64,000 nucleotides of DNA from an uncultured Methanosarcinales archaeon (GCA_964358315.1 CAYHOF010000002.1:10738-74737); one strand, 5' to 3'; positions 1,976 through 64,000 are shown, counted from the stretch's first letter. Translations and numbers: made by a program. Notes: generated by a model not told the origin, from the letters alone.

Positions 1976-2059
1976 GCGGCGGTGCCGGAGTGGTCAAACG
2001 GGGCGGACTCAAAATCCGCTGGCCTAGCGCCTACGCAGGTTCGAATCCTGTCCGCCGCA
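1976..2059 (+). tRNA. tRNA-Leu (anticodon CAA), class II with a long variable arm. CCA is not encoded.
   Basis: Folded by hand. The acceptor GCGGCGG pairs with CCGCCGC, and the discriminator is A. The anticodon stem CGGAC/GUCCG (corrected: GCGGA/UCCGC) encloses the loop CUCAAAA, giving anticodon CAA. The T-arm is GCAGG-UUCGAAU-CCUGU. A long variable arm and a T-run follow. Confidence 0.85.
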
Positions 2060-2061
2060 GC

Positions 2062-2085
2062 TTTTTTGTCCTCCCGGACAAAAAA
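2062..2085 (+). terminator. A perfect 10 bp hairpin (TTTTTTGTCC-TCCC-GGACAAAAAA) with a T-run immediately 3' of tRNA-Leu, a probable terminator or processing structure.
   Basis: The palindrome was read directly from the sequence. Archaeal terminators are oligo-T tracts. Confidence 0.45.
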
Positions 2086-2388: not shown

Positions 2389-3738
2389 ATGACAATAGAA
2401 ATAATGGCCGTGGGCGGTTACGGCGAAGTAGGAAAGAACATGACCGCGATCAAAGTCGATGACGACGTCGTCGTCATCGACATGGGCTTTCACATGCCCA
2501 ATTACATCAAGTACACCGAAGGCGAGGAGGAGAAGGATTTCTACCGCGCCGAGGACCTCATCAAGGTCAACGCGATCCCTGACACTGCGCTCATGGAAGA
2601 CTGGATCCCGAACGTGCGCGCGGTCGTTATCTCGCACGCACACCTCGACCATATCGGAGCAGTGCCGTATCTCGCGCCGAAATTCAAGGCGCCCGTGCTT
2701 GGCTCACCATACACCATGGCAGTCATCAAGGCCATCCTGCGCGACAACAAGATGCGCGTGCCCAACCAGTTGCGCACGGTGGCGCTCAACAGCACGTACC
2801 GCGTCAACAAGAACCTGTCGATCGAGTTCATCGGCGTCACGCACAGCATCCCGCACCAGTGTTTCATCGCACTCCACACCAAGTACGGTGTCATCCTGTA
2901 CGCGCTTGATTTCAAGTACGACAACAACCCGGTCGTCGGCGACCGTCCCAATTACGCGGCGATGAAGCGCATCGGCGACAAGGGAGTCATCGTCGCCATG
3001 GTGGACTCGCTCTACTCGCACGAGGAGAAGAAGACACCGTCGGAGAGCGTGGTCAAGGAGATGCTGCGCGACGTCATGATGGGCACGAGCAGCAAAGGCA
3101 ACGCGGTGATCGTCACCACGTTCGCGAGCCACATCGCGCGTCTCAAGACCATCATGGACTTCGGCAAGCAGCTCAACCGCAAGATCGTCTTCTTGGGCCG
3201 TAGCCTCGCCAAGTACGTGGACGCTGCCGAAAGCATCAAGATGGTCAATTTCAGCAAAGGCATGGCTGGCTTTGGCAAGTACGGCAAGCAGACGCGTTCG
3301 CTCCTCAACAGGATCGAGCGCGAAGGCGCGCACAAGTACCTGCTCGTCGTCACAGGCCACCAGGGCGAGCCCAGAAGCACGCTCAGCAAGATGGCGACAG
3401 GCCTCTTGCCCTTCAAGTTCAAGCCAGGGGACCACGTGATTTTCTCGTCGAACATCATCCCGCACCCGACCAACGTGCTGGACAGGCAACGCCTCGAGGC
3501 GGAATTGCGCTCGCATGGCGTACGCATCTTCAAGGACCTCCATGTCTCAGGCCACCCGTGCAGGGAGGACCTGTACGAGTTCTTCCGCCTGATCAAACCC
3601 AAGCACGTCATCCCGGCGCACTCGGAGCACGACCGCATCGAGAAGTTCATCGAGTTCGCCGAGACCCTCGGGTACAAGCGCGGCCACACCGTGCACGAGA
3701 TCTGGACCGGCCAGAAGTTCTCCGTTAAACACGAGTAG
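2389..3738 (+). CDS. rnj: Archaeal RNase J, a beta-CASP metallo-beta-lactamase ribonuclease.
   Basis: It has the HAHLDHIG motif, an MBL fold and a beta-CASP region, and is about 450 aa. The start is taken at ATG 2389, in frame with ORF 2350. A TATA (TTTATAAG) lies at 2337-2344 and an SD-like GAAAGAGGTT is present. Confidence 0.85.
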   Translation: MTIEIMAVGGYGEVGKNMTAIKVDDDVVVIDMGFHMPNYIKYTEGEEEKDFYRAEDLIKVNAIPDTALMEDWIPNVRAVVISHAHLDHIGAVPYLAPKFKAPVLGSPYTMAVIKAILRDNKMRVPNQLRTVALNSTYRVNKNLSIEFIGVTHSIPHQCFIALHTKYGVILYALDFKYDNNPVVGDRPNYAAMKRIGDKGVIVAMVDSLYSHEEKKTPSESVVKEMLRDVMMGTSSKGNAVIVTTFASHIARLKTIMDFGKQLNRKIVFLGRSLAKYVDAAESIKMVNFSKGMAGFGKYGKQTRSLLNRIEREGAHKYLLVVTGHQGEPRSTLSKMATGLLPFKFKPGDHVIFSSNIIPHPTNVLDRQRLEAELRSHGVRIFKDLHVSGHPCREDLYEFFRLIKPKHVIPAHSEHDRIEKFIEFAETLGYKRGHTVHEIWTGQKFSVKHE

Positions 3739-13451: not shown

Positions 13452-13889
13452 ATGGCTGAGGACATCATGACCACGCTGCGTGAGTGGGCGCTGCAGTACC
13501 TGCAGAACCGCGACCTGCTCATGCGGGCCATCACCGGGATCCAGAAGAACACGGACGGGTGGGACATCGTGCTCACGACGACCACGGAGTCCCGTTACGT
13601 GACCGTCCTGCCCGACCTTGGCGCCATCACAGGCATTCTTGAGAAGGCGAGCGGCAAGAATGTGCTTGTCGTCACGACCAACGTGCGCACGAACGTCGAC
13701 GCCGTCATCGCGGCATGGCCGGAACTCATCAAGCACCCTAAACTCTCGATCCTGTTCGTCAACCCGTACTCGGGCACGGACAAGCGCTGGACCATCAACC
13801 CGCACGTGCACGAGAAGGTCACCGAGCGCAAGGCGCTCAAGCTTGGCCTCTATAGTCTTTTCTCGACGGTCGAAGAATACGCGGGCTAA
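13452..13889 (+). CDS. Hypothetical protein (145 aa).
   Basis: The ORF has good GC3 codon usage. A divergent AT-rich promoter (TTTAAATTTTA) lies at about 13380-13395. Confidence 0.45.
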   Translation: MAEDIMTTLREWALQYLQNRDLLMRAITGIQKNTDGWDIVLTTTTESRYVTVLPDLGAITGILEKASGKNVLVVTTNVRTNVDAVIAAWPELIKHPKLSILFVNPYSGTDKRWTINPHVHEKVTERKALKLGLYSLFSTVEEYAG

Positions 13890-14224
13890 CGCGCGGCAAG
13901 GACGATCGTGGCGATGCCGATGAGCGTGCCGGCCACTACTTGCCAGGGCGTGTGGCGCTTGATGTTGTGGTGCCCGAACGCGTCGTACATGACGATGAGC
14001 GCGAACACGAGCGTCACGATAAAGAGCGTGCTCTCGAGGCCTTCAGTGAAGCCGACTGCTGTCACGAGCGAGGACACGAGCGCGGAATGGGAGCTCGGCA
14101 TGCCTCCCGGCTGGAAGAAGCTGCGCCACAAGAAGCGCTTGGCGTGCACGCTATCAATGGTCGTCTTGAGCGATTGCGTGATGAGCCACGCGAGCGGCAC
14201 GTACCAGTAGAGCGTCGACACCAT
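13886..14224 (-). CDS. YuiD/PAP2-like membrane protein (acid phosphatase/vanadium haloperoxidase-related, DUF212).
   Basis: It has the GGMPSSHSA motif and a hydrophobic profile typical of the family. Its ATG lies 2 nt downstream of the tRNA-Gly 3' end. Confidence 0.65.
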   Translation of the reverse strand: MVSTLYWYVPLAWLITQSLKTTIDSVHAKRFLWRSFFQPGGMPSSHSALVSSLVTAVGFTEGLESTLFIVTLVFALIVMYDAFGHHNIKRHTPWQVVAGTLIGIATIVLAAR

Positions 14225-14225
14225 A

Positions 14226-14296
14226 TGCGGCTGGCGGGAATCGAACCCGCATCCGAAGCTTGGGAAGCTCCTATTCTACCACTAAACTACAGCCGC
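14226..14296 (-). tRNA. tRNA-Gly (anticodon CCC). CCA is not encoded.
   Basis: Folded by hand from the reverse complement GCGGCTGTAGTTTAGTGGTAGAATAGGAGCTTCCCAAGCTTCGGATGCGGGTTCGATTCCCGCCAGCCGCA. The 7 bp acceptor stem, the anticodon loop UUCCCAA, the T-arm GCGGG-UUCGAUU-CCCGC and discriminator A are all consistent. Confidence 0.85.
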
Positions 14297-14320
14297 GTAT
14301 GACTGCGGCGATAATGGCAG

Positions 14321-14330
14321 GATAAAAAAC
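14321..14330 (-). promoter_or_regulatory. TATA box (GTTTTTTATC on the minus strand) 25-34 nt upstream of the tRNA-Gly 5' end.
   Basis: The position relative to the tRNA was read directly. The element overlaps the stop of the PRC-barrel gene. Confidence 0.5.
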
Positions 14331-30444: not shown

Positions 30445-30621
30445 GGGCGGCTTTCTCCTCGAAAGTATCGGTACGTATCGACGATATGTGCCTCAAATAC
30501 GCGACAAGCCTGAGAAGGGACATTCTCAGTACAGTCTGTTTAATCACATTCTGTTTCTACGAAAACGTCCCGCGAAAGGCAGACTTGCACTGGCCGAGCC
30601 CACCATAACGGGCAAACCAAT

Positions 30622-31590
30622 ATGCCAACAAGACGAAACCCACGAAAATCGAGTATGCAGTTCTGGCATAGGCGCCGCTCTCCTCGCATGACCGCAAGGA
30701 TCCGCACGTGGGTCGGCACCAAAGACGCGAAACTCCTGGGTTTCTGCGGCTACAAGGTCGGCATGACCCACATCATCCAGATTGACAACCGTTCCACATC
30801 GCTTTCTAAGGGCGAAGAAATCGCCACTCCTGTGACAATCATCGAAACCCCGCCTATGAGAATCATCGGCTTCAAAACGCTCAAGAACACGTACGGCGGC
30901 AAACAAGTCGCGCAGTTCAAGTGGGTCGACAAGACCGAGAAATACCTCGCACGCGCCATCAACGTGCCAAAGCAAGCAAAAGCAGTCGATATCAACGCGC
31001 AAGGCGTCGTCGCCGTGCGCGTGCTCGTCCAGACCCAGCCACACCTCATCAATCTCAAGAAAACCCCTGACATCGTCGAACTCGGCGTCGGCGGCACCGT
31101 CGAGCAGCAGCTCGCCTACGCGAACAGCATGCTCGGCAAGGAAATCAAGCCGACCGACGTGTTCGTCGAAGGCCAACAAGTCGACGCGCACAGCGTCACC
31201 AAAGGCCACGGCCTGCAAGGTCCTGTCGCACGTCACGGCATCATGATCCGCTCGCACAAGGCAGAGAAGACCAAGCGTGGTCCTGCAACGCTCGGTCCGT
31301 GGGACGGCAACCGTTCCTACCGTGTCGCCCACCAGGGCCAGACCGGCTTCCACCGCCGCACCGAGCTCAACAAGTGGATCGTCAAGATCGAAGCAAAACC
31401 TGAGGAAGTCAACCCCAAGGGCGGCTTTGTCCACTACGGCAACGCGAACGTCGCGTGCATGATGCTCAAGGGCAGCATCGGCGGCGCAAGCAAACGACTT
31501 ATCACACTCACACACGCGCACAGACCGCGCGCGAACATCCCGAACAAGGCACCGGAGGTCACGCATATCAGCGTGGCATCAAAACAATGA
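30622..31590 (+). CDS. rpl3: Ribosomal protein uL3.
   Basis: Diagnostic L3 sequence. Confidence 0.9.
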   Translation: MPTRRNPRKSSMQFWHRRRSPRMTARIRTWVGTKDAKLLGFCGYKVGMTHIIQIDNRSTSLSKGEEIATPVTIIETPPMRIIGFKTLKNTYGGKQVAQFKWVDKTEKYLARAINVPKQAKAVDINAQGVVAVRVLVQTQPHLINLKKTPDIVELGVGGTVEQQLAYANSMLGKEIKPTDVFVEGQQVDAHSVTKGHGLQGPVARHGIMIRSHKAEKTKRGPATLGPWDGNRSYRVAHQGQTGFHRRTELNKWIVKIEAKPEEVNPKGGFVHYGNANVACMMLKGSIGGASKRLITLTHAHRPRANIPNKAPEVTHISVASKQ

Positions 31591-32393
31591 ACCTCAAGAT
31601 CATGACGATGGCAAAGACGGAGAAAGGCACCAAGAAGATGCCAGTCCAGTTCGACGAGCCAGTGCGCGTCGACCTCATCCGCCGCGCGGTCGAATCCGTC
31701 TTGTGCAACATGCGCCAGGCATACGGCGCAGACCCCATGGCAGGCAAGCGCCAGGCCGCTAAGATCTCGCGCCGACGCCGCGACTACAAAGGCGCGTACG
31801 GCCAAGGTATCTCCCGTGTCCCGCGGAAGATCATGAGCCGCAACGGCACGCAGATGAACTGGCAGGGCGCATTCGCGCCAGGTACGAAGGGCGGTCGTCG
31901 CGCGCACCCGGCAAAGGCAGAACGCACGCTCTCCAAGGGCATCAATATCAAGGAACGACGCAAGGCGATCCGCAGCGCGCTCGCAGCCACGCTCGACAAG
32001 GATGTCGTGACGTTGCGCGGCCACAAGATCCCGGCAAGTTATCCATTCATCATCGATGCCGATTTCGAGAACCTCGACAAAACCGTCAAGGTCATCGAAG
32101 CACTCACGACGCTGGAACTCGGCGCCGACCTCGAACGCGCCGGCATCCGCAACATCCGCGCAGGCAAGGGCAAGAACCGAGGCCGCCCCTACAAGGGACG
32201 CAAGGGTCCGCTCATCGTCGTCTCGAAATCCTGCCCCCTCGCGAAGGCGGCAAGCAACATCCCGGGCGTGGATGTCGTCGAGGTCAGCAGGCTCAACGCC
32301 GCGCTCCTCGCGCCAGGCACGCACGCAGGACGCCTCACACTCTACACTGAAGCAGCGATCGAGCGCATGGACAAGGAGGGACTGTTCCGATGA
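31587..32393 (+). CDS. rpl4: Ribosomal protein uL4.
   Basis: L4 pattern. The ATG overlaps the uL3 stop (ATGA). Confidence 0.85.
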   Translation: MNLKIMTMAKTEKGTKKMPVQFDEPVRVDLIRRAVESVLCNMRQAYGADPMAGKRQAAKISRRRRDYKGAYGQGISRVPRKIMSRNGTQMNWQGAFAPGTKGGRRAHPAKAERTLSKGINIKERRKAIRSALAATLDKDVVTLRGHKIPASYPFIIDADFENLDKTVKVIEALTTLELGADLERAGIRNIRAGKGKNRGRPYKGRKGPLIVVSKSCPLAKAASNIPGVDVVEVSRLNAALLAPGTHAGRLTLYTEAAIERMDKEGLFR

Positions 32394-32641
32394 ACGTCAT
32401 CCACTTCCCTGTCTCGACGGAAAAGGCGCTGCGCATGATGGAAAGCGAGAACAAGCTCGTCTTCCAGGTAGATGATCGCGCGACCAAGCAGGACATCCGC
32501 ATCGCGATCGAGAAAGAACTCAAGGCAAAGGTCGTGTCCGTCAACGTCGTGCGCACCATCAGGGGCCACAAGCGCGCCTACGTGCGCTTCGCGCCCGAGA
32601 CGCCCGCGATCGACATCGCGACCAACCTGGGGTTGATGTAG
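32390..32641 (+). CDS. rpl23: Ribosomal protein uL23.
   Basis: L23 pattern. Confidence 0.85.
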   Translation: MNVIHFPVSTEKALRMMESENKLVFQVDDRATKQDIRIAIEKELKAKVVSVNVVRTIRGHKRAYVRFAPETPAIDIATNLGLM

Positions 32642-32642
32642 T

Positions 32643-33359
32643 ATGGGTAAATCCCTCATCCAACAGGCACGTGGCAAAGGTGGCCCGCGTTATCGCGCGC
32701 CTAGCTTCCGCTACGAAGGCGAAGCCAAGCATCGCACAATCATCACTGGCACGATGGAAGCCAGAATCATCGACTTCGTCAAATGTCAAGGCCACCTCGC
32801 ACCGCTCGCCAAGCTCAAGTACGACGACGGCGTCGAATCGCTTATCCAGGCAGCCGAAGGTTTGCGTGTCGGCGACAAAGTCACCTACGGTCCGGGCGCT
32901 GATGTGAAAGCAAGCGGCAACACACTCGCGCTCAAAGACATCCCTGACGGCGCTGCCATCTTCAACATCGAAAGCCAGCCGGGCGATGGCGGCAAGTTCT
33001 GCCGCACGAGCGGCACGTTCGCGAAGATCGTCGGTCGCACAGAAGACGGCGTCAACATCATCCTGCCAAGCAAAGTGGAGAGGCTCTTCAACATCAACTG
33101 CCGCGCGATCATCGGTGTCGTCGCAGGATCGGGCCGCACCGAAAAACCGTTCCTCAAGGCAGGCAACATGCACTATCACATGAAGGCGCGCAACAAGCGC
33201 TATCCAAGCATCAGGGCAGCGGCGCAGAACGCCGTCGACCACCCCTACGGTAACAAGCGTACGTCGAGAAAGGCCAAGAACAAGCCTGTCGGCCACGACG
33301 CTCCGCCAGGCAGGAAGGTCGGTACGCTCTGGTCACGCAGGACGGGGAGGAAGAAGTAA
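32643..33359 (+). CDS. rpl2: Ribosomal protein uL2.
   Basis: L2 pattern (GGGKF...HHM). Confidence 0.9.
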   Translation: MGKSLIQQARGKGGPRYRAPSFRYEGEAKHRTIITGTMEARIIDFVKCQGHLAPLAKLKYDDGVESLIQAAEGLRVGDKVTYGPGADVKASGNTLALKDIPDGAAIFNIESQPGDGGKFCRTSGTFAKIVGRTEDGVNIILPSKVERLFNINCRAIIGVVAGSGRTEKPFLKAGNMHYHMKARNKRYPSIRAAAQNAVDHPYGNKRTSRKAKNKPVGHDAPPGRKVGTLWSRRTGRKK

Positions 33360-33429
33360 GATGACGATCACAAACAACGTTTTGGTCGAGCTTTTCGCGC
33401 AGGCGAAAAGGTCGGGAGCGCAGAAGTAA

Positions 33430-33810
33430 ATGGCAAAGGAATTCGTCTGGTACGGGCTGACGTGGGACAAGGTCGAGAAGCTCAGCATGGACGAGTTCGC
33501 GACCTACCTCCCGGCGCGTGCGCGACGCACGCTCAAGCGCGGGATGCGCGAGCCCGAGAAGAAACTGCTCAAGGAAGTCGAGCTTGGCGCACCCAACATC
33601 AAGACCCACTGCAGGGACATGATCATCACGCCTGTGTTCGCAGGCAAGCAGATCAAGATCCACAACGGCAAGGAATTCTTCCTTGTCATGATCGAGAAGG
33701 ACATGATCGGCCACCGGCTCGGCGAGTTCTCGCAGACGCGCAAGCGTGTCGAGCACAGCGCACCCGGTATCGGCGCGACGCGCAGTTCAGCGTCGATGAG
33801 CGTGAAGTAA
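33430..33810 (+). CDS. rps19: Ribosomal protein uS19.
   Basis: S19 pattern. Confidence 0.9.
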   Translation: MAKEFVWYGLTWDKVEKLSMDEFATYLPARARRTLKRGMREPEKKLLKEVELGAPNIKTHCRDMIITPVFAGKQIKIHNGKEFFLVMIEKDMIGHRLGEFSQTRKRVEHSAPGIGATRSSASMSVK

Positions 33811-33812
33811 AC

Positions 33813-34295
33813 ATGACAGAGTACGGCTACGGATACAAGGCAGGACAGAACGAGGCCAAGGCGGTCGGCGTGGGCCTGCCCATATCCTACAAGCACGGCA
33901 GCGAAGTGGCCAGGTTCATCCGCGGGATGAAGGTCAGCAGGGCCAAGACCGTGCTCGACAACGTCATGCGCTTCAAGGAAGCAGTGCCCTACACGCGCTA
34001 CTTTGAGGAGATCGCCCACCAGAAGAACGTGGGCCCTGGGCGCTTCCCTATCAAGACGTGCAAGAACATCCTTGCCATCCTCGAGAGCGCCGAGGCAAAC
34101 GCGCAGTTCAAGGGGCTCAACACAGGCAACCTCATCATCAAGCATATCGCAGCGCAAGGCGGCGGCAAGGTACACCACTACGGTCGCAACGGCCGCAAAG
34201 CCAAACGCGCGCACATCGAGATCGTCCTCGCGGAATCCGCGCAAACGGCGAAACCCACCAAGAAGGAGGGCAGCAAAGCTGCACCCAAGAAATGA
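33813..34295 (+). CDS. rpl22: Ribosomal protein uL22.
   Basis: L22 pattern. The start is an internal ATG, in frame with ORF 33462. Confidence 0.85.
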   Translation: MTEYGYGYKAGQNEAKAVGVGLPISYKHGSEVARFIRGMKVSRAKTVLDNVMRFKEAVPYTRYFEEIAHQKNVGPGRFPIKTCKNILAILESAEANAQFKGLNTGNLIIKHIAAQGGGKVHHYGRNGRKAKRAHIEIVLAESAQTAKPTKKEGSKAAPKK

Positions 34296-35110
34296 TCGAG
34301 AGGAAATTCGTCAAGGAACAAGTACGCGGCCTTCTCCTCGAGGAGTTCGTCAGCGAGACGCTCAAGAACGTGGGCCTCAGCCACGTCAAGATGTCGCGCA
34401 CGCCGCTCGGCGAGAAGATCACCATCTTCGCCTCGCGCCCCGGCCTCGTGGTCGGACGCAAGGGCGAGAACATCAAGAAGCTCACGCAGACGCTCAAGAA
34501 GAAGTTCGAGCTCGAGAACCCGCAGATCGAGATCGCGGAAGTGTCCGACCCGAACCTGGACGCGCGCATCGTCGGTGAACGCATCGCGAGCACGATCGAA
34601 CGCTTCGGCATCCAGAAGTTCAAGGCCGTGGGCCACAAGACCATGACAGATGTCATGCACTCTGGCGCGCTCGGTGTCCAGATCACGATTTCGGGCAAGA
34701 TCCCGGGCGCACGTGCGAAGACGTGGCGCTTCTACAACGGCTACCTCAAGAAGAGCGGCCAGATCGCCATGGATGGCGTGCGGCACGCGAGCACGGTGGC
34801 CAACATGAAATCCGGCTGCATCGGCATCCAGGTATGGATCATGCCGGCCGACGTGCACCGCCCTGACGACATCCACGTCATCATGGAGCACACGGCGCCT
34901 GCCGTCGTGGCAAAGACAGAGGAGCCCAAGAAGGAAGAGAAGAAGAAGCGCGCGCCCCGCAAGAAAGCGGCCAAGAAACAACGGGAAGAGACATCCCACG
35001 CTCAAGGAAGCGATGCTTCCGTTGAAAAGACCGAAGAAAGCGTCGAAGCCGCCGAAACGGCACCCGTGGAAGCGAAAGAAGAGACCAAGGAGGAGACCGA
35101 TGAAGCGTAA
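34292..35110 (+). CDS. rps3: Ribosomal protein uS3, which carries a KH domain and a Lys/Glu-rich tail.
   Basis: S3 pattern. The start is an ATGA overlap. Confidence 0.9.
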   Translation: MIERKFVKEQVRGLLLEEFVSETLKNVGLSHVKMSRTPLGEKITIFASRPGLVVGRKGENIKKLTQTLKKKFELENPQIEIAEVSDPNLDARIVGERIASTIERFGIQKFKAVGHKTMTDVMHSGALGVQITISGKIPGARAKTWRFYNGYLKKSGQIAMDGVRHASTVANMKSGCIGIQVWIMPADVHRPDDIHVIMEHTAPAVVAKTEEPKKEEKKKRAPRKKAAKKQREETSHAQGSDASVEKTEESVEAAETAPVEAKEETKEETDEA

Positions 35111-35300
35111 GGACGTGCTCGGTCTCGCGCCCGCGGAGAGGGCAGGCAAGCTTGCCGAGCTGCGCTCCGAGCTCATGAAGTTACGATCACAAGCGTCGAC
35201 GGGCACTGCCCAGAAGGCGTCGGGCCGCATCCGTGCGGCACGGCGCGCGATCGCGAGGATACTGACACTACAACGACAAGGAGGGACGAACAAGGAATGA
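35100..35300 (+). CDS. rpl29: Ribosomal protein uL29.
   Basis: L29 pattern (MKRKDV...LRSELMKLR). Confidence 0.8.
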   Translation: MKRKDVLGLAPAERAGKLAELRSELMKLRSQASTGTAQKASGRIRAARRAIARILTLQRQGGTNKE

Positions 35301-35608
35301 GTGACGTGTGCGAAACGTGTGGCCTGCCCGAGGAACTCTGCGTGTGCGAAAGCATAGCGAAAGAGAGCCAGAAGATCGAGATCAGGACCACCGAAAAGAA
35401 ATTCCACAAGAGCTACACTGTCATCAGCGGCATCGACCCAAAGGAAGTCGACATCAAGGACTTGGCCAAGACCCTCAAGAACAAATTGGCGTGCGGGGGC
35501 ACGGTCAAGGACAATGTCATCGAACTCCAAGGCAACCACCTCAAGGATGCGAAGGGCATCCTGGTCGCGGCGGGGTTCGCTCCCGAAATGATCATCGTCA
35601 AAGGATAA
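35297..35608 (+). CDS. Translation initiation factor SUI1 (aIF1).
   Basis: SUI1 pattern (IRTTEKKFHKSYTVISGI...LACGGTV). Confidence 0.85.
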   Translation: MSDVCETCGLPEELCVCESIAKESQKIEIRTTEKKFHKSYTVISGIDPKEVDIKDLAKTLKNKLACGGTVKDNVIELQGNHLKDAKGILVAAGFAPEMIIVKG

Positions 35609-35610
35609 CC

Positions 35611-35976
35611 ATGGCAACTGAAAAAACAATCGGAACACGCGGACGCGAATTCGTCGGCACTGTCGTCAATGCGAAGATGCAGAAGACGGTCACGGTCGAA
35701 TGGCCACGACAGGTATTCATCCCAAAGTTCGAGAGGTTCCTCACCAAGCGCACGCGCGTCAAGGCCCATAACCCGGCAGAGATCGACGCGAAGGTAGGCG
35801 ACCGTGTGCGGATCCAGGAGTGCAGGCCGATCAGCAAGACCAAGTCATTCAAGATCATGGAGAAGCTCGGTGTCGACTTCAAGTACGTCGCACGCGAGGA
35901 GCACCTCAAGGAAGGCGTCGTCGCGCGCGCCGAGAAAGCACGCGAACACCCCAAGGGAGAGGTCAAGGAAGCATGA
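35611..35976 (+). CDS. rps17: Ribosomal protein uS17.
   Basis: S17 pattern. No rpp29 ORF lies between sui1 and rps17. Confidence 0.85.
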   Translation: MATEKTIGTRGREFVGTVVNAKMQKTVTVEWPRQVFIPKFERFLTKRTRVKAHNPAEIDAKVGDRVRIQECRPISKTKSFKIMEKLGVDFKYVAREEHLKEGVVARAEKAREHPKGEVKEA

Positions 35977-36374
35977 AGGCAGTCACGAGCCGCATGACGC
36001 GGGCACTCAACCACGGGACGTGGGTCGAGACCTGTGACAACAGCGGCGCCAAGATCCTCAAGATCATGACGGTCAACCGTCACAAGACGGTCAAGGGACG
36101 CGTGCCGCAGGCCGCGGTCGCCGACCTCGTCATGTGCTCGGTCAAGAGCGGCAAGCCCGACATGCGTAAGCAGGTCGTGTACGCCATCATCGTCCGGCAG
36201 AAGAAGGCGTGGCGCCGCAAGGACGGCACGCGCATCTGTTTCGAGGACAACGCGGCTGTCGTCGTCAAGGACAAGGACGGCAACCCCAAGGGCACGGTCA
36301 TCAAGGGACCGATCGCGAAGGAAGTGGCGGACCGATGGCCGCTGCTCGCAAAGAACGCATCATTGATAGTATGA
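35973..36374 (+). CDS. rpl14: Ribosomal protein uL14.
   Basis: L14 pattern. The start is an ATGA overlap. Confidence 0.9.
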   Translation: MKAVTSRMTRALNHGTWVETCDNSGAKILKIMTVNRHKTVKGRVPQAAVADLVMCSVKSGKPDMRKQVVYAIIVRQKKAWRRKDGTRICFEDNAAVVVKDKDGNPKGTVIKGPIAKEVADRWPLLAKNASLIV

Positions 36375-36384
36375 TACCAATACC

Positions 36385-36837
36385 ATGAAACAATTCACAT
36401 CAAGCTGGAAGGCAAGCAACAAGCCGAACAAGCAGCGCCTGTACGTGTACAGCGCGCCCTTGCACGTCAAGAGCGCGATGCTCGCCGCCCACCTCTCGAA
36501 GGAGCTGCGCGAGAAGCTCAAGAAGCGCTCGATGCGCGTGCGTGTCGGTGACAAGGTCGTCGTCATGAACGGCGAGCACCACAAGAAGAACGGCAAGATC
36601 GAGAGCGTCGATTTGCAGGCGCAGCGCGTGTACATCGCCGGTATCGAACAGGTGCGCAAGGACGGCGGCAAGTCGCTCATCCCCTTCCACCCGAGCAATC
36701 TCGTCATCACCGAGATGGTGAGCGACAAGATGCGCACGAAATCCCGATCACAAAAAGCGCCGGCCGCCAAGGAGACGAAGGCGCCCAAGGCCAAACCAGC
36801 ACTGAAGGAAACCAAGAAAGGGAAGGAATCACAATGA
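36385..36837 (+). CDS. rpl24: Ribosomal protein uL24 (KOW domain).
   Basis: L24 pattern. Confidence 0.85.
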   Translation: MKQFTSSWKASNKPNKQRLYVYSAPLHVKSAMLAAHLSKELREKLKKRSMRVRVGDKVVVMNGEHHKKNGKIESVDLQAQRVYIAGIEQVRKDGGKSLIPFHPSNLVITEMVSDKMRTKSRSQKAPAAKETKAPKAKPALKETKKGKESQ

Positions 36838-37508
36838 GCAGTTACCTCAAGAGATACGCGGCACCGCGCAGCTGGACGCTGCTGCGCAAGGAGACCAAGT
36901 ACGTCATGAAGTCCTCGCCTGGCGCGCACGCGATGGAACACAGCATGCCGATTGGCATGCTGCTCAAGTCGCTGGGCCATGCGTCCACGACCAAGGAAGC
37001 AGGACTCATCATGCGCAACAGCAACGTGCTCATCGACGGTCGCCGCATCAAGGACCACAAGTTCGCGCTCGGCCTCATGGACACCGTCACGCTCAAGGAA
37101 TCAGGCGAGCACTACCGCGTCGTCATCGACGACAAGGCGCGCATCATGCTCGCGAAGATCAGCGGCAAGGACGCCGCGAGCAAGGCATGCCGCGTGCTCG
37201 GCAAGACAGTCATCAAGGGCGGCAAGCTGCAGCTCAACCTCAGCGGCGGTCGCTGCGTCATCACGGATAAGAAAGATTTGTCAGTCGGCGACACCGTCAT
37301 GCTCTCGCTGCCTGACCAGAAGATCACCAGCACGCTCAAACTCGAGAAAGACGCCACCATCCTGCTCACCGCAGGGCGCCATGCCGGCACGATCGGCACC
37401 GTCGAGGACATCACGGAGGAGCGCATCCGCTACGCCACCAAGGACGGCAGCGAGCAGACGCTCACGGACTACGCGTTCGTCATTCCGGAAGGCATGATCA
37501 CACAATGA
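36834..37508 (+). CDS. rps4e: Ribosomal protein eS4.
   Basis: S4e pattern. Confidence 0.9.
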   Translation: MSSYLKRYAAPRSWTLLRKETKYVMKSSPGAHAMEHSMPIGMLLKSLGHASTTKEAGLIMRNSNVLIDGRRIKDHKFALGLMDTVTLKESGEHYRVVIDDKARIMLAKISGKDAASKACRVLGKTVIKGGKLQLNLSGGRCVITDKKDLSVGDTVMLSLPDQKITSTLKLEKDATILLTAGRHAGTIGTVEDITEERIRYATKDGSEQTLTDYAFVIPEGMITQ

Positions 37509-38026
37509 ACCCGATGCAACAGTTGCGGATCGAGAAGCTCACGCTGAACATCGGCGCGGGCAAGGACCAGGCAGTGCTCGAGAAAGGCATGACTGTCATC
37601 AAGAGCATCACCGGCATCGAGCCGCAGAAGAGGATCACACAGAAACGCATCCCGTCATGGGGACTGCGCCCGGGCCTCCCTGTCGGCGTGCGCCTCACCC
37701 TGCGCGGCAAGAAAGCGGAGGAGATGCTGCGCCGCACGCTCAAGGCAAAAGAATTCAAGCTCCGTCCGACGCACTTCGACAACGCAGGCAGCGTGTCGTT
37801 CGGCGTGCCGGAACACATCGAGATCGAGGGCGCCAAGTACGACCCGAAGATCGGCGTCATGGGACTGCAAGTGTGCGTCACGCTCGAGAAGCCCGGCTTC
37901 CACGTCAAGCGCAGGCGCGTCCGCGCGTCGCCCGTGGGCAAAGCACACAGGATCTCGCGCGACCAGAGCATGGCGTTCATGAAGGAGAAGTTCGGCGTCA
38001 ATGTCGCTGAAGGTGAGGAAGCATGA
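37505..38026 (+). CDS. rpl5: Ribosomal protein uL5.
   Basis: L5 pattern. Confidence 0.9.
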   Translation: MNPMQQLRIEKLTLNIGAGKDQAVLEKGMTVIKSITGIEPQKRITQKRIPSWGLRPGLPVGVRLTLRGKKAEEMLRRTLKAKEFKLRPTHFDNAGSVSFGVPEHIEIEGAKYDPKIGVMGLQVCVTLEKPGFHVKRRRVRASPVGKAHRISRDQSMAFMKEKFGVNVAEGEEA

Positions 38027-38253
38027 CGAGCAAGGACTGGCGCAAGACGCTCAAACAACTCAAGGCAAAACCGACCGTGAGGCAGAAGTACATCAAGCAC
38101 AACTCACCGAACGAGCGCACGACCGGCACTGCGTTGCAGAAATGCCGCCGCTGCGGACAGACACGGGCCCACATCAGCAAGTACGGGCTGCACCTGTGCC
38201 GCCTGTGCTTCAAGGACATAGCACTGAGCATCGGTTTCAAGAAATACAATTAG
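38023..38253 (+). CDS. rps14: Ribosomal protein uS14 (zinc-binding type).
   Basis: It has CRRCGQTRAHISKYGLHLCRLCF. Confidence 0.85.
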   Translation: MTSKDWRKTLKQLKAKPTVRQKYIKHNSPNERTTGTALQKCRRCGQTRAHISKYGLHLCRLCFKDIALSIGFKKYN

Positions 38254-38262
38254 GAGAACACA

Positions 38263-38652
38263 ATGAACAACGACCCACTCGCGAACGCGATGTCAAAGAT
38301 CGTCAACTACGAGAAGATCGGACGCAACAGCGTCCAGGTCTACCCTGTCGGCGACCTTGCGAAGGGCGTCCTCGCGATCCTCAACAAGCACGGGTATGTC
38401 GGCACGCTCGAGGAACTGAAGACCACGCGCGGCACGGTCTGCACGCTCGCCTTGCTTGGCACGATCAACAGCGCAGGCGTCATCAAGCCGCGTTTCGCGG
38501 TCGGCACGGACAAGTTCGAGAGGTTCGAAAAGCGTTTCCTGCCTGCACAAGGCGTCGGCGTCATCATCATATCCACGTCCAAGGGCCTCATGACCCTGGA
38601 CGAGGCGCGCAAGGAGAATGTCGGAGGCAGGCTGATCGCCTACTGCTACTGA
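38263..38652 (+). CDS. rps8: Ribosomal protein uS8.
   Basis: S8 pattern. Confidence 0.9.
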   Translation: MNNDPLANAMSKIVNYEKIGRNSVQVYPVGDLAKGVLAILNKHGYVGTLEELKTTRGTVCTLALLGTINSAGVIKPRFAVGTDKFERFEKRFLPAQGVGVIIISTSKGLMTLDEARKENVGGRLIAYCY

Positions 38653-39194
38653 TGAAACAGACTCTCACGTACAACGTTGCCGTGCCTGAAGGCATCGACG
38701 TAGCCGTCAAGGGACGTGACGTCACGGTCAAGGGCAAGAACGGCGCCATCACGCGCCGCCTGCTCGAGCCCCGTGTCACGATCAACGTCGATGGCAAACA
38801 AGTCGTCATCCAGGCGCACAAGTCGACCAAGCGCGAGAAGATGTACATGGGCACGATCCAGGCCCACATCACCAACATGATCAAGGGCGTGCAGGAACCG
38901 TACCTGTACAGGCTCAAGGTGTGCGCAAGCCACTTCCCGATGAACGTCACCGTGGTCGGCAACGAGCTCGTGGTCAAGAACTTCCTCGGCGAGAAAGTGC
39001 CGCGCAAGATCGGCTTCGACGCCGACGTCAAGGTCAAGATCGCGGGCGACGTGATCGAGGTCACGGCGGCCGACATCGAACTCGCAGGACGCACCGCGTC
39101 CAAGTTCGAGGGGATCACGTTCATCAACAAGCGCGACCGCCGCATCTTCCAGGACGGCATCTATATCACGCACAAACCAGGAGTCGATGTATAA
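38652..39194 (+). CDS. rpl6: Ribosomal protein uL6.
   Basis: L6 pattern. The start is an internal ATG overlapping the rps8 stop. Confidence 0.85.
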   Translation: MKQTLTYNVAVPEGIDVAVKGRDVTVKGKNGAITRRLLEPRVTINVDGKQVVIQAHKSTKREKMYMGTIQAHITNMIKGVQEPYLYRLKVCASHFPMNVTVVGNELVVKNFLGEKVPRKIGFDADVKVKIAGDVIEVTAADIELAGRTASKFEGITFINKRDRRIFQDGIYITHKPGVDV

Positions 39195-39768
39195 TACCAT
39201 GGCAGACATGATCAAGCTCAGGAAGGAGATCAAGGACCGTAAGCCTACGTTCCGCCGCCAGATCTACAACCACAGGCCGAACTTGGCCACGACCGGCTGG
39301 CGCAAGCCCAAGGGCTTGCACAGCAAGATGCGGCACAAGAGCGCAGGCCATCAGGCATGCGTGAGCGTGGGTTGGGGCTCGCCTGTCGATGTCGAAGGCA
39401 TGCACCCGAGCGGGCTGTGGCCCATCATCGTCAACAACATGGCGCAGGTCGCGACCCTTGATGCCAAGACGCAGGGCGCGCTCATCGCAGCAGGCGTGGG
39501 CACCCGCGCACGCCTCGGCATCGTCGACGCGCTTGTCAAGAAGAACATCACCATCCTCAACATGAAGGAGCCCAAGAGCTTCGCCGCGACCGTCGCTGCC
39601 GGCATGAAGGCGCGCAAGGACGCAAAGGCGAAGAAAACGGCGCCCAAGGAAGAGAAGAAGCCGTCAAGCAAACCCGCCGCAAAACCCGAACCTGCCATGT
39701 CCGAGGAGGACAAGAAAGAGACGCAGCGCAGGGAAGCGGAGAAAGTCATGATCCAGAAGGAGCGATGA
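39187..39768 (+). CDS. rpl32e: Ribosomal protein eL32 with a Lys/Ala-rich C-terminal extension.
   Basis: L32e pattern. Confidence 0.8.
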   Translation: MYNTMADMIKLRKEIKDRKPTFRRQIYNHRPNLATTGWRKPKGLHSKMRHKSAGHQACVSVGWGSPVDVEGMHPSGLWPIIVNNMAQVATLDAKTQGALIAAGVGTRARLGIVDALVKKNITILNMKEPKSFAATVAAGMKARKDAKAKKTAPKEEKKPSSKPAAKPEPAMSEEDKKETQRREAEKVMIQKER

Positions 39769-39769
39769 A

Positions 39770-40210
39770 ATGATACAACGCAGACTCGCCGCAACCATCT
39801 TCAAGTGCTCGCCGCAGCGCGTGCGCTTCGATGAGACGCGCCTCGCGGACATCAAGGAAGCGATCACCAAGGCCGACGTGCGCGGCCTCATCAAGGAAGG
39901 AATCATCACACGCCTGCCGGTTCACGGCAACGCGAACACGCGCAAGAACGTGCGTGCCAAGCAGAACGCAAAGGGCCGCCGACGTGGCGCAGGCAGTCGT
40001 AAGGGCAAGGCCAACGCACGCATGCCGGAGAAGCAGGTGTGGATGGCACGCATCCGCGTCCAACGCGCGCTGCTCAACCGTCTCCGCGACCGTCAGAAGA
40101 TCGCGGACGACACCTTCCGTGACCTGTACATGAAGGCCAAGGGCGGCTTTTTCCGTAGCGAGAGGCACATCAAAGTCTATCTGGAGGAACAGAACCTGTT
40201 CACGAAGTGA
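39770..40210 (+). CDS. rpl19e: Ribosomal protein eL19.
   Basis: L19e pattern. Confidence 0.85.
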   Translation: MIQRRLAATIFKCSPQRVRFDETRLADIKEAITKADVRGLIKEGIITRLPVHGNANTRKNVRAKQNAKGRRRGAGSRKGKANARMPEKQVWMARIRVQRALLNRLRDRQKIADDTFRDLYMKAKGGFFRSERHIKVYLEEQNLFTK

Positions 40211-40791
40211 TCATCATGGCAACCAATCAACGTTACGTCGTCCCCTTCCGCCGCAAGCGCGAAGGACGCACAGACTACCACAAGCGGCTCAAGCTGCTCA
40301 GCGGCGACGCGCCCAGGTTCGTGATCCGCAAGTCATTGCACCACATGCGCGTGCAGCTCGTCGTGTACGAACCGATGGGCGACAAGGTCCTTGTGAGTGC
40401 GACGACCGAAGAGCTCGTCAAGAAGGGATACAAGGGCGCGACATGCAACGTTCCTGCCGCCTACTTGTGCGGCATGCTGCTCGCAATCAAGGCAAAGGAC
40501 AAGAAGATCGAGCGCGCAGTCGCTGACATCGGCCTCTCGACGCCGGTGCGCGGCTCGGTGCTCTTCGCCGCGGTCGCGGGCGCGCGCGCAGGCGGGCTTG
40601 ACGTGCCCACGGACGAGAAAGCGCTGCCTTCCGAGGACCGCCTCAAGGGCATGCACGTCGCGGCGTACGCGAAACTGCTCAAGAAAGACGATGCCCTGTA
40701 CAAGCGCACGTTCAGCGCGTACCTCAAGAACGGGCTGGCTCCTGAAGAGCTGCCCAAACATGTAGAAGAGATACAGAAAAAACTCAAGTGA
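40207..40791 (+). CDS. rpl18: Ribosomal protein uL18.
   Basis: L18 pattern. Confidence 0.85.
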   Translation: MIIMATNQRYVVPFRRKREGRTDYHKRLKLLSGDAPRFVIRKSLHHMRVQLVVYEPMGDKVLVSATTEELVKKGYKGATCNVPAAYLCGMLLAIKAKDKKIERAVADIGLSTPVRGSVLFAAVAGARAGGLDVPTDEKALPSEDRLKGMHVAAYAKLLKKDDALYKRTFSAYLKNGLAPEELPKHVEEIQKKLK

Positions 40792-41633
40792 TGACCATGA
40801 CTGAAGAAGAAATCACAACACCAATCGACGTGGAAGAGAAGCCGGTGCTCGAAGTGGTCAAGGACACGCTCACCGCGCTCCCTGACATCGAAGCGGCGCC
40901 CACGCCAGCAGAACTCAAGCCCAATTTCGACGTCGCGGCATGGACGCCAAAGACCGAGCTCGGCAGGAAGGTCAAGAGCGGCGAGATCACCACGATCGTG
41001 CAGGCGCTGCGCACAGGCGAGCGTATCATGGAAGCGCAGATCACGGACATCCTGTTGCCCAACATGGAGAGCGACATGCTCTGGATCGGCCAGTCCCGCG
41101 GTAAGTTCGGCGGCGGCGCACGCAGGCTCTTCAAGCAGACGCAGAAGAAGACGCCCGAAGGCAACAAGCCCTCGTTCGGCACGCTGGCCGTCATCGGCAA
41201 CCGTGACGGCATCGTCGGCCTCGGTTATGGCAAGAGCAAGGACACCGTGCCCTCACGCGAGAAGGCGTTGCGCAACGCGAAACTCAACGTGTTCATGATC
41301 AGGCGCGGCTCAGGCAGTTGGGAATCCAACACGACAGAACCGCACAGCATCCCCTTCACCATCGAAGGCAAGTGCGGATCGGTGCGCATCAAACTCATGC
41401 CCGCGCCCAAGGGCAAAGGCCTTGTCATCGAGCCCAACTGCGCGAAAGTGCTCGAGCTCGCAGGCATCAAGGACGTGTGGTCCAAGGCAAGCGGCCAGAC
41501 GCGCCGCACGCGCAACCTCGTCATGGCGCTCGAAGACGCGTTGCGCAAGCTCGCCGTTTTCAAAGTCTCACAGAAGTCACGTGACGCGACAGGCGTCATC
41601 GAAGGGCCCATCATCAAGGAGGCCGGACAATGA
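40788..41633 (+). CDS. rps5: Ribosomal protein uS5 with an N-terminal extension.
   Basis: S5 pattern. Confidence 0.85.
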   Translation: MMTMTEEEITTPIDVEEKPVLEVVKDTLTALPDIEAAPTPAELKPNFDVAAWTPKTELGRKVKSGEITTIVQALRTGERIMEAQITDILLPNMESDMLWIGQSRGKFGGGARRLFKQTQKKTPEGNKPSFGTLAVIGNRDGIVGLGYGKSKDTVPSREKALRNAKLNVFMIRRGSGSWESNTTEPHSIPFTIEGKCGSVRIKLMPAPKGKGLVIEPNCAKVLELAGIKDVWSKASGQTRRTRNLVMALEDALRKLAVFKVSQKSRDATGVIEGPIIKEAGQ

Positions 41634-41992
41634 GCGACAACATCGCGATCGTGCGCGTCCGCGCGCAGGTCCGCATGAGCGGCATGAACGAGGAGACGCT
41701 GCACTTGCTCAACGTGCCTGTGCCAAACTCCTGCGCCGTCATCAAGAACACGCCTGAGAAGATGAACATGGTCACGCGTGTCGCAGGCGTCCTCACCTGG
41801 GGCGAGCTCTCGGACGAGTCGCTCGCGCTGCTGCGCAAGAAGGCGAAGGACCCCAAGGCCACGCATTTCAGGCTCAACCCGCCCCGCAAGGGCTACAGCA
41901 AGAAGGGCTCGAAACTGCCCTTCGTCGTCGGCGGCGCGCTCGGATACCGCGGCGACAAGATCAACGATTTGATTCAACGCATGGTGGACTAA
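41630..41992 (+). CDS. rpl30: Ribosomal protein uL30.
   Basis: L30 pattern. Confidence 0.8.
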   Translation: MSDNIAIVRVRAQVRMSGMNEETLHLLNVPVPNSCAVIKNTPEKMNMVTRVAGVLTWGELSDESLALLRKKAKDPKATHFRLNPPRKGYSKKGSKLPFVVGGALGYRGDKINDLIQRMVD

Positions 41993-42424
41993 ATGGTCGT
42001 CAAGAAACAACGCAAGGTCATCCGCAAGCGCGGCTCGCGCCGTCACGGCTACGGTCGCGCGCACCGCGGTTCAGGCAACAAGGGAGGCTACGGTAACGCG
42101 AGTGGCGGCAAAAAGTCCGACACCAAGAAGCGCAGCTTCCCCGCAGGCTATTTCGGCAAGGAAGGATTCATCTCACACCAGAAAGTGGTGCACACCATCC
42201 TCAACTGCCGCGACCTTGACAGCCGCATCGAGCACTGGACGGTCCAGAAGCTCGCCAAAAAAGAAGGGGACACGTACCACATCGACCTCGGCACGCTTGG
42301 CTACGACAAACTCGTGGGCAGCGGGCAGATCACGCACAAGATCAAGGTCACTGTCGCCTTCGCGGCGAAGTCCGTCGCCGACAAGCTTAAGAATGCCGGC
42401 GGCGAACTCGTGGTACAGCAATAA
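41993..42424 (+). CDS. rpl15: Ribosomal protein uL15.
   Basis: L15 pattern. Confidence 0.85.
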   Translation: MVVKKQRKVIRKRGSRRHGYGRAHRGSGNKGGYGNASGGKKSDTKKRSFPAGYFGKEGFISHQKVVHTILNCRDLDSRIEHWTVQKLAKKEGDTYHIDLGTLGYDKLVGSGQITHKIKVTVAFAAKSVADKLKNAGGELVVQQ

Positions 42425-42427
42425 ACC

Positions 42428-43822: not shown

Positions 43823-43824
43823 GG

Positions 43825-44586: not shown

Positions 44587-44707
44587 CGCTCCGTCGATAT
44601 CTTTTCCCTATTTATATACTGGAGTATCGAGGTGTTTATAAACGAAGTTGTTTAAAAGGGCTTTAAATTAGGTGAGATAGTACATCGACGGTAGGGGGTT
44701 AGTGGGA

Positions 44708-62801: not shown

Positions 62802-63701
62802 TTATTTTTTATCGAGCGACACTTTCATCAGGTCGTGCGCCGCGATGGTGTTCTGGAATGCTGTCTTTGCGTCCTCGAGCAGTTCGGTCGTGGTCCGGTA
62901 GCGCGCGCTGAAGTGGGTGATGAGGAGTTTCTTGACGCCGGCCTGGCTCGCGAGTTGTGCTGCCTGGCGTGCGGTCATGTGCGTGTATTCCTCCGCCTTC
63001 TCTTCGAGCGTGCTCGTGTAGCTCGCTTCGCAGACGAGCAGGTCCGCGTTCTCGGCGAGTTCGTGCGCTTCCTTGCAGGGTGACGTGTCCGTGACGAACG
63101 CCACGATCGTTCCTTTGACGATGGTCGTCGTGTCTTTCGGATGGACGGGCTTGCCTTTCCAGATGACTTCTTCGCCGCGCTGGAGCTTGCCGAGCAGCGG
63201 TCCTTCGGGGATGCCGAGTTTCTTGACCTTCGCGAGGTTGATGCGGCGCCGGTCCTTTTCCGCGATGCGATACCCGACGCACGGGATGCCGTGGTGCAGT
63301 GGCATCGCGCTGACGAGCAAGTCCTCTGTCTCGAACACCGCGCCTTTGTGCACTTCGCGCACGTCGAGATCGAGTTGTTGCTTGAACTCGAACGTGTCGA
63401 GCACGCTGCGCACGTGTTGTCGCGTGCCGCTTGGGCCATAGATGATGACGGTGCGTCCTGGCGTGCCTTGCGACATCGTCATCAGGAGGCCGGGCAGGCC
63501 CAGCACGTGGTCGCCGTGCCAGTGCGAGAGTAGGATACGGGTGACTTTGGAATGTGCGATGCCTGCATAACTGAGCTGGCGTTGCGTGCCTTCACCGCAA
63601 TCGAGCAGCATGCCTTCAGTGCGGTGCAGCAGTAGGTATGCGCTGTGGTTGCGGTCCTTGGTGGGCACCATCGCGCTCGTGCCCAAGACGACGAGTTCCA
63701 T
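62802..63701 (-). CDS. rnz: Ribonuclease Z (tRNA 3' endonuclease).
   Basis: It has the MBL motif HWHGDH and is about 300 aa from the internal ATG 63701 (MELVVLGTSA). A TATA about 25 nt upstream supports that start. Confidence 0.85.
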   Translation of the reverse strand: MELVVLGTSAMVPTKDRNHSAYLLLHRTEGMLLDCGEGTQRQLSYAGIAHSKVTRILLSHWHGDHVLGLPGLLMTMSQGTPGRTVIIYGPSGTRQHVRSVLDTFEFKQQLDLDVREVHKGAVFETEDLLVSAMPLHHGIPCVGYRIAEKDRRRINLAKVKKLGIPEGPLLGKLQRGEEVIWKGKPVHPKDTTTIVKGTIVAFVTDTSPCKEAHELAENADLLVCEASYTSTLEEKAEEYTHMTARQAAQLASQAGVKKLLITHFSARYRTTTELLEDAKTAFQNTIAAHDLMKVSLDKK

Positions 63702-63768
63702 GCTGTCGTCGAGCGGCGGGCGCTTTAAATAAGTAACCTTTTTAAGGCCGCAGGACGGCAGGACGTGC

Positions 63769-64000
63769 ATGACAGCGACCATCACGGCGGTGTTCGAGGG
63801 CGCGCGTTGCGTGACCGAGAACTCGGCAGAGGCGCAAGGCCTGTTTTCCAAGAACCGTTACGGCACGTTGCGGCCAGACGGCCGACTCGAGCTTGGCGGC
63901 TATGAAGCGCTGTTCTTGGCAGAGACAGGCAGGATCATCGTCCTCGACGGCCGCGGCAGGCAGGTGTCGCTCAAGACGCTGCGCGCGCGCATCATCGGCA
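63769..64000 (+). CDS. endA: tRNA-splicing endonuclease EndA, N-terminal part. It is truncated by the window end.
   Basis: MTATITAVFEGARCVTE...NRYGTL...LELGGYEALFLAETGRIIVLDG matches the EndA N-terminal domain. It is not in the ORF track because no stop codon falls within the window. Confidence 0.55.
   Translation, partial: MTATITAVFEGARCVTENSAEAQGLFSKNRYGTLRPDGRLELGGYEALFLAETGRIIVLDGRGRQVSLKTLRARIIG

Follow-up and report, generated by a model that had tools for sequence, protein, structure and literature searches.

A conserved one-nucleotide junction between tRNA-Gly(CCC) and yuiD in archaea as a candidate site of leaderless mRNA formation by tRNA 3' processing

Punctuation of transcripts by tRNAs was reportedly described for mitochondria by Ojala, Montoya and Attardi in 1981. 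Mitochondrial tRNA punctuation has been reviewed, and the direct abutment of tRNA and mRNA was called a "mitochondrial peculiarity" (PMC3790967). The window examined here, i.e. the whole stretch of DNA that was analysed (64,000 nucleotides), contains a tRNA-Gly(CCC) gene that is followed after a single nucleotide by a short-form yuiD gene. As in mitochondria, the tRNA abuts the mRNA, and 3' processing by RNase Z would give an mRNA with a leader of 0–3 nt that is translated without a Shine-Dalgarno (SD) sequence. Unlike in mitochondria, a single junction is concerned; it belongs to the chromosome of a cellular archaeon whose promoters and terminators are otherwise conventional, and is not part of a genome-wide scheme. 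The enzymes differ as well (short-form RNase Z here, ELAC2 there), and the archaeal case was read from sequence alone.

In Haloferax, RNase P and tRNase Z act in vivo on RNAs flanked by tRNA-like elements and release them with exact ends (PMC4946936). As is proposed for the present locus, a tRNA-shaped element is the target of an archaeal tRNase Z, which frees an adjacent RNA with an exact functional end; the Haloferax products were 5S rRNA or engineered crRNAs next to tRNA-like elements, whereas a genuine tRNA-Gly and a protein-coding, putatively leaderless mRNA are involved here. Co-transcripts of tRNAs and C/D box sRNAs, thought to be resolved by RNase Z, were described for T. kodakarensis (sR44-tRNA-Arg) and Nanoarchaeum equitans (PMC4247193). 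They likewise combine one promoter, a tRNA and a second functional RNA, but the partner is a small non-coding RNA and not an mRNA that would need the cut to become translatable. A bacterial tRNA-mRNA operon is thrU-tyrU-glyT-thrT-tufB of E. coli. Dicistronic tRNA-mRNA transcripts are known from plants (PMC8166872). In both cases a protein gene depends on the tRNA promoter and is co-transcribed, as proposed here. In contrast to the junction described below, these transcripts have a long spacer and own SD or cap-dependent signals, and tRNA processing leaves the 5' end off the start codon.

Leaderless mRNAs, both archaeal primary ones and those generated by MazF in E. coli, have been discussed in the literature (PMC4681348). 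Like the predicted yuiD mRNA, these are translated as RNAs that begin at the AUG or directly beside it and need no SD, and the MazF end is also made by an endonuclease. Primary leaderless mRNAs, however, carry a 5'-triphosphate and have a TATA box approximately 27 nt upstream, for which yuiD was tested and which is absent. MazF leaves a 5'-OH and acts in a stress response, whereas the yuiD case would be a constitutive step of tRNA maturation. Within an incomplete coverage of the literature, no report of an archaeal or bacterial leaderless mRNA made by tRNA 3' processing was found, only mitochondrial work and tRNA-sRNA co-transcripts, which is absence of evidence only. The tRNA-Gly/yuiD locus is regarded as a well-conserved, testable arrangement rather than a new principle; the initial observation was confirmed, and its interpretation appears supported, since all of its premises at the sequence level held and comparison between lineages strengthened it.

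Features of the locus and of the loci used for comparison are compiled in Table 1. The RF00005 match of tRNA-Gly (69.2 bits versus a gathering score of 29, model positions 1–71) has the same coordinates as the ARAGORN prediction, and the RNA forms a full cloverleaf with the anticodon CCC. The junction reads ...CCAGCCGCA(14226) T(14225) ATG(14224-14222) GTG TCG.... ARAGORN, Rfam and the sequence itself agree on the discriminator base at 14226, one nucleotide before the ATG at 14224, as claimed in an earlier note on this DNA, all coordinates of which proved correct. Only two tRNA genes, those for tRNA-Gly(CCC) and tRNA-Leu(CAA), are present in the window, and neither encodes the CCA end. Upstream of tRNA-Gly, the PRC-barrel gene ends with a TAG stop codon (14332-14330), and GTTTTTTATC begins immediately after it. 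At its other end, the yuiD stop overlaps by 4 nt (13886-13889) with the stop of the convergent gene, so that their mRNAs must share an antisense overlap at the 3' ends. A Pfam search with the convergent 145-aa protein gave no match.

Table 1. Positions of genes and signals; window coordinates are used unless a locus name precedes them.
Feature	Position	Strand	Remarks
tRNA-Gly(CCC), 71 nt	14296..14226	-	ARAGORN and Rfam RF00005; discriminator A14226
Single spacer nucleotide T14225	14225..14225	-	Sole 5'-UTR nucleotide if the cut falls 3' of the discriminator
Short-form yuiD (DUF212/divergent PAP2), 112 aa	13886..14224	-	Pfam, alignments, upstream analysis
PRC-barrel gene, 92 aa	14330..14608	-	Own TATA (TTTAAATA) and SD (AGGAGGG); conserved neighbour anchoring the synteny
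A/T-rich element GTTTTTTATC	14321..14330	-	Predicted BRE/TATA of the tRNA-yuiD unit; also oligo-T tract after the PRC-barrel stop
Predicted transcription start A14298, with T before it, and pre-tRNA leader "AC" of 2 nt	14297..14298	-	Inferred from promoter geometry
Convergent leaderless gene, 145 aa	13452-13889	+	Conserved in Woesearchaeota
tRNA-Leu(CAA) (1976-2059), 2 nt, T6 tract (2062-2067)	1976..2067	+	Internal control
RNase Z gene	62802..63782	-	TIGR02651, PDB matches, HxHxDH motif
RNase J-family beta-CASP ribonuclease gene	2389..3738	+	TIGR00649, 420.7 bits versus cut-off 400
trmB-like gene and yuiD	L024:2352-3484; L025:2345-3480		ATGA overlap; GGGAGAGGG SD before yuiD

Related junctions were recovered via protein matches (L006, L007), from a metagenome scan (L010), by a DNA pattern scan (L013, the NCBI MAG "archaeon isolate DeMMO3_20") and via the PRC-barrel protein (L018/L019). 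Together with the window these made up n = 6 lineages, i.e. five further diverged loci besides the window. The DNA scan for the junction yielded one MAG (L013); nothing was found by a protein-pattern scan of genome contigs or by the junction scan of viral contigs. All six lineages have a tRNA-Gly(CCC) with discriminator A, exactly one nucleotide (T in five, G in L010) and an ATG. The distance from tRNA 3' end to start codon, for which 0–3 nt are expected in tRNA punctuation, was thus 1 nt throughout, while the spacer between the PRC-barrel stop and the tRNA measured 33–49 nt and 1-codon indels occurred in the YuiD N-terminus. Pairwise identity of the six tRNA-linked YuiD proteins was 44–78%. 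The arrangement is more than chance, the 1-nt junction recurring at all five diverged loci besides the window. The tRNA sequences of L007, L013 and L018 are identical, which reduces the effective number of deep lineages to about four. The cloverleaf, which was tested explicitly, showed 100% pairing across the six loci with 3 compensatory pairs; the RNAalifold consensus of the six tRNAs was not a cloverleaf. Upstream of the tRNA, position -1 is an invariant C and position -2 is A in 4 of the 5 aligned loci, and the oligo-T/TATA tract after the PRC-barrel stop is kept in all six lineages.

Close homologues of the PRC-barrel protein number in the thousands, and the named ones are labelled Candidatus Woesearchaeota. 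The clade with the junction is assigned to these tiny archaea of groundwater. Other Woesearchaeota share the neighbourhood consisting of TraB, PRC-barrel and a convergent 140–145-aa gene, which is orthologous to that of the window (42% identity, E = 2e-42). In L024 and L025, the slot is filled by a trmB-like gene, leaderless and of 239 aa (TATA TATTTAAAT), and behind it a full-length yuiD (138–139 aa), without a tRNA. The trmB-like gene stands alone in L027 (866-1585), where yuiD is absent, and the slot of L020-L022 holds neither of the two. The translational coupling of trmB-like gene and yuiD in sister lineages implies that yuiD was already a promoterless second gene before a tRNA took the upstream position. 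In the window's subclade, the position of promoter donor is held by a tRNA gene, the SD is absent and approximately 31 internal YuiD residues are lost. Use of the tRNA as integration site of a mobile element was considered and rejected: no integrase was present, and TraB, PRC-barrel and the convergent 145-aa gene are syntenic without the tRNA.

For promoter analysis, the sequences preceding 43 curated gene starts, taken from 61 predicted ORFs of the window, were compared. In 11 first genes, an octamer with at least 7/8 A/T and an AAAG-like BRE before it begins between -31 and -34 relative to the ATG (at exactly -31 in 8 cases, at -34 in 2); a pyrimidine is found at -1, and an SD is absent. This is the classical archaeal leaderless architecture and the default mRNA type for first genes of this genome. 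Operon-internal genes of the window have GGAGG-type SDs, for example in a cluster at approximately 30–44 kb. This long array of small genes, densely spaced and either preceded by GGAGG-type SDs or overlapping at their starts (~30600-44600, + strand), to which a 464-aa gene at 42428-43822 belongs, looks like a ribosomal-protein cluster and was used as SD-led contrast set.

A PWM was built from the 11 leaderless promoters of the window, with a leave-one-out range of 7.9–15.4 for the true sites. The GTTTTTTATC site scored 9.6 (54 sites of 9.5 or higher in 128 kb, both strands), and its octamer begins 31 nt before A14298, the most frequent TATA-to-start distance among the leaderless genes of the window. 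The next-best site between this element and the yuiD ATG scored 3.3 and is located in the anticodon arm (CCCAAGCTTSRGAT), at -34 from the ATG. The claim of the earlier note that only one TATA is present, upstream of the tRNA, was thereby borne out. Its description of 14321-14330 as "TATA" holds in so far as the score is promoter-grade, but the element is not purely a TATA and doubles as oligo-T tract of the PRC-barrel gene. Owing to this double nature, read-through from the PRC-barrel gene may contribute to transcription of the unit.

No GGAGG-like motif was found 5–15 nt upstream of yuiD, where the sequence is that of the tRNA acceptor/T arm (TTCCCGCCAGCCGCAT); the 45 upstream nucleotides altogether represent the anticodon, T and acceptor arms of the tRNA. 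Neither oligo-T nor hairpin was found in the 1-nt spacer or in the first 70 nt of the yuiD ORF. With no terminator between the two genes, polymerase transcribing tRNA-Gly would be expected to enter yuiD. The best promoter-like site of the control gene tRNA-Leu scored 12.4 and is located at -92, which implies a leader of approximately 60 nt and hence that some 5' processing activity must exist. The predicted 5' leader of tRNA-Gly comprises only 2 nt ("AC"), i.e. the tRNA would be nearly leaderless. Leaderless tRNAs are said to occur in Nanoarchaeum equitans. Behind tRNA-Leu, GTCCTCCCGGACAAAAAACC comes after the T6 tract (2060-2090, + strand) and forms an inverted repeat with an A6 run; the whole looks like a bidirectional terminator.

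Transcription might instead start mainly at the PRC-barrel promoter and yield a tricistronic PRC-tRNA-yuiD precursor, with the TTTTTTAT tract acting as leaky terminator and not as promoter. Excision by RNase P and RNase Z would then set the 3' end of the PRC mRNA and the 5' end of the yuiD mRNA. Consistent with this, a T-rich tract directly follows the PRC-barrel stop in all lineages, including those without a tRNA behind it; L025 has the tract, yet its trmB-like gene uses the separate TATTTAAAT promoter further downstream, and the 49 nt that separate tract and tRNA in L006 are too long a distance for a near-leaderless tRNA. Five of the six lineages, however, have the tract at -33 or -34 from the tRNA 5' end, in agreement with the TATA-to-start geometry of the genome, and the tract (TTTTTATCC) is identical to the TATA of the leaderless gene at 13452. 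Moreover, an oligo-T of 5 or more terminates archaeal transcription efficiently. A main contribution of the PRC-barrel promoter is therefore considered unlikely, and it would alter the promoter assignment only, leaving the RNase Z step unaffected.

A primary leaderless yuiD mRNA from a promoter inside the tRNA (anticodon arm, at about -34) appears slightly less probable again. The 1-nt spacing would then reflect a promoter-to-start distance, which would also be selected to remain fixed, and a spacing of -34 is used by 2 of the 11 reference promoters. The site at this position is weak: judged as a primary leaderless gene with an octamer approximately 31–34 nt upstream of the start, yuiD scored 3.3 as against 7.9–15.4, and its octamer (CTTCGGAT) has only 4/8 A/T versus at least 7/8 in all 11 reference TATA octamers. 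The corresponding scores were 0.2–3.3 in 4 of the 6 loci and 7.3 in L010, and the site was outside the top three in L018, so that every lineage is below the leave-one-out minimum of 7.9. The anticodon-arm sequence is, in addition, constrained by tRNA function, and polymerase from the tRNA promoter would have to cross the region anyway, as no terminator intervenes.

An in-frame TAG (14278-14276) is located inside the tRNA, and ATG 14224 is therefore the first possible start of yuiD, giving the N-terminus MVSTLYWY. This ATG is invariant in the six lineages. Codons 3, 5 and 6 within the range 3–6 changed synonymously (Ser3 TCG/AGC/TCA, Leu5 CTC/TTG/CTT, Tyr6 TAC/TAT), i.e. protein-level selection begins right after the ATG. 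As these changes are found from codon 3 on, ATG 14224 is fixed as the start, and the alignments indicate that yuiD is under purifying selection from codon 3 onward. A true start further downstream, which had been named as an outcome that would speak against the arrangement, was ruled out: besides the invariant ATG and the selection on the residues preceding any later start, the GTG codons 2 and 9 are unconserved, and GTG codon 9, the only alternative downstream start, is replaced by CTT in L006 and by GTC in L010.

The YuiD protein of the window matched PF02681 (DUF212, "Divergent PAP2 family") with E = 2.2e-29 and 102.7 bits versus a cut-off of 26.5. The match covered only profile positions 9–84 of 126, short of the full-length architecture. 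All six tRNA-linked YuiD proteins have 112–117 aa, compared to 137–150 aa of full-length family members, and lack approximately 31 internal residues that all full-length DUF212 members possess between "YDAxG" and "GHTP"; "GHHxxRRH" stands there instead. All PAP2-type motif residues (GGMPSxH, YDA and the conserved His) are kept. The nearest full-length matches (P0004, P0006, P0007; 50–52% identical) came from bacterial contexts without tRNAs, and the woesearchaeal YuiD proteins of the same syntenic slot (L024, L025) were only 35–42% identical to that of the window. A recent horizontal transfer of yuiD from bacteria was considered and would not be needed for the mechanism. An identical YuiD protein is encoded on metagenome contigs from the Hainich aquifer (well H43), of which a partial copy is labelled "Nanoarchaeota archaeon" by NCBI.

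That the junction merely reflects shared ancestry, with compaction or deletion having brought the tRNA next to a decaying or otherwise-expressed gene (e.g. from a downstream start), would fit the shortening of YuiD by approximately 31 family-profile residues and the identical tRNA sequences of three lineages, but is very improbable, since short YuiD is conserved at 44–78% with all PAP2-type motif residues, N-terminal codons substitute synonymously, the alternative start is unconserved, and indels occur in the flanking spacers and N-terminal codons but not in the junction.

The RNase Z gene of the window was identified by the TIGR02651 RNase_Z equivalog (331.9 bits versus a cut-off of 292.95) and by PDB matches to 2cbn (E = 3e-56) and 1y44 (E = 9e-54); its true start is probably located a little downstream within the ORF. 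RNase Z cuts after the discriminator before CCA is added. Given the absence of CCA from the tRNA genes, maturation of the tRNA 3' end would require a cut immediately behind discriminator A14226. At the gene level, both an encoded RNase Z and a CCA-less tRNA gene, as expected for tRNA punctuation, are present. In the predicted fold of the precursor, the acceptor, anticodon and T helices were retained, and no pairing with the mRNA occurred.

From these data, co-transcription and subsequent RNase Z cleavage to a 5'-P-U-AUG yuiD mRNA is the best-supported mechanism and probably the correct one. tRNA-Gly(CCC) and short yuiD would form one transcription unit under control of the BRE/TATA-like element at 14330-14321. 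Transcription would start near A14298, perhaps supplemented by read-through from the PRC-barrel gene, and the primary transcript would be ppp-AC-[tRNA]-U-AUG.... RNase P would remove the 2 nt at the 5' end of the pre-tRNA. The expected enzyme at the 3' end is RNase Z, encoded in the window, which would cut after A14226. The same cut would create the 5' end of the yuiD mRNA (5'-P-U-AUG), which would be effectively leaderless. It would then be translated without SD interaction via the leaderless pathway used by most first genes. In the uncut precursor, the AUG would be 2 nt away from the folded tRNA without an SD and probably be untranslatable.

mRNAs with a 5'-monophosphate would be favoured substrates of 5'-3' exonucleases. 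Stability of the processed mRNA may thus be limited, and the RNase J-family enzyme is a possible decay route for it. With such a 5' end and an RNase J-family gene in the window, yuiD expression could be very low. Speculatively, a short-lived 5'-monophosphate mRNA, degraded via RNase J, would suit a low-abundance membrane protein that is expressed from a strong tRNA promoter. The RNase J-family gene itself, whose TATA (TTTTATAA) is located at -53 and which is preceded by an SD-like AGAGG, is leadered, unlike most first genes here.

More tentatively, and with somewhat more doubt than confidence, a clade within the Woesearchaeales is proposed to use true chromosomal tRNA punctuation. RNase Z cleavage of tRNA-Gly(CCC) would then be an obligatory activation of yuiD translation, turning an untranslatable precursor into a leaderless mRNA with a 5'-monophosphate, and the first cellular (non-organellar) case of the mitochondrial mechanism, and the tRNA would have replaced the trmB-like gene as promoter donor. 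If the cut is real, the "mitochondrial peculiarity" extends to compact archaeal genomes, of free-living or episymbiotic organisms, and output of a membrane protein would be linked to transcription and maturation of a tRNA. Archaeal leaderless initiation would need neither a 5'-triphosphate nor a 5' end defined by transcription. The locus would also provide a natural test of archaeal initiation on processed 5'-monophosphate leaderless mRNAs and show how such mRNAs fare against 5'-3' decay of the RNase J type.

Annotation pipelines often distrust or trim a CDS that touches a tRNA gene; here, the abutting start is the conserved and correct one. For L018 (2313-2385) and L019 (552-624), ARAGORN called a 73-nt tRNA, and a 71-nt call at 2314-2384 matches the other loci. 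The longer call results from a T before the tRNA that pairs with the discriminator A, so that the spacer nucleotide becomes the "end". A 0-nt abutment of tRNA and CDS could therefore appear in automated annotations.

Searches for bacterial-type promoters and intrinsic terminators gave no relevant candidate; the only terminator-like match was formed by the leader and the acceptor-stem 5' strand. A hexamer GCAGTC (window 14301-14307, - strand), located downstream of the TATA element and ahead of the tRNA, is conserved in 4 of the 6 lineages, the further copies being located at L007:1175-1180, L013:~276-281 and L018:2301-2306. Base pairing of the hexamer with the acceptor-stem 5' strand is possible in some lineages (terminator-like hairpin 14309-14292). 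Its conservation may simply be due to shared ancestry.
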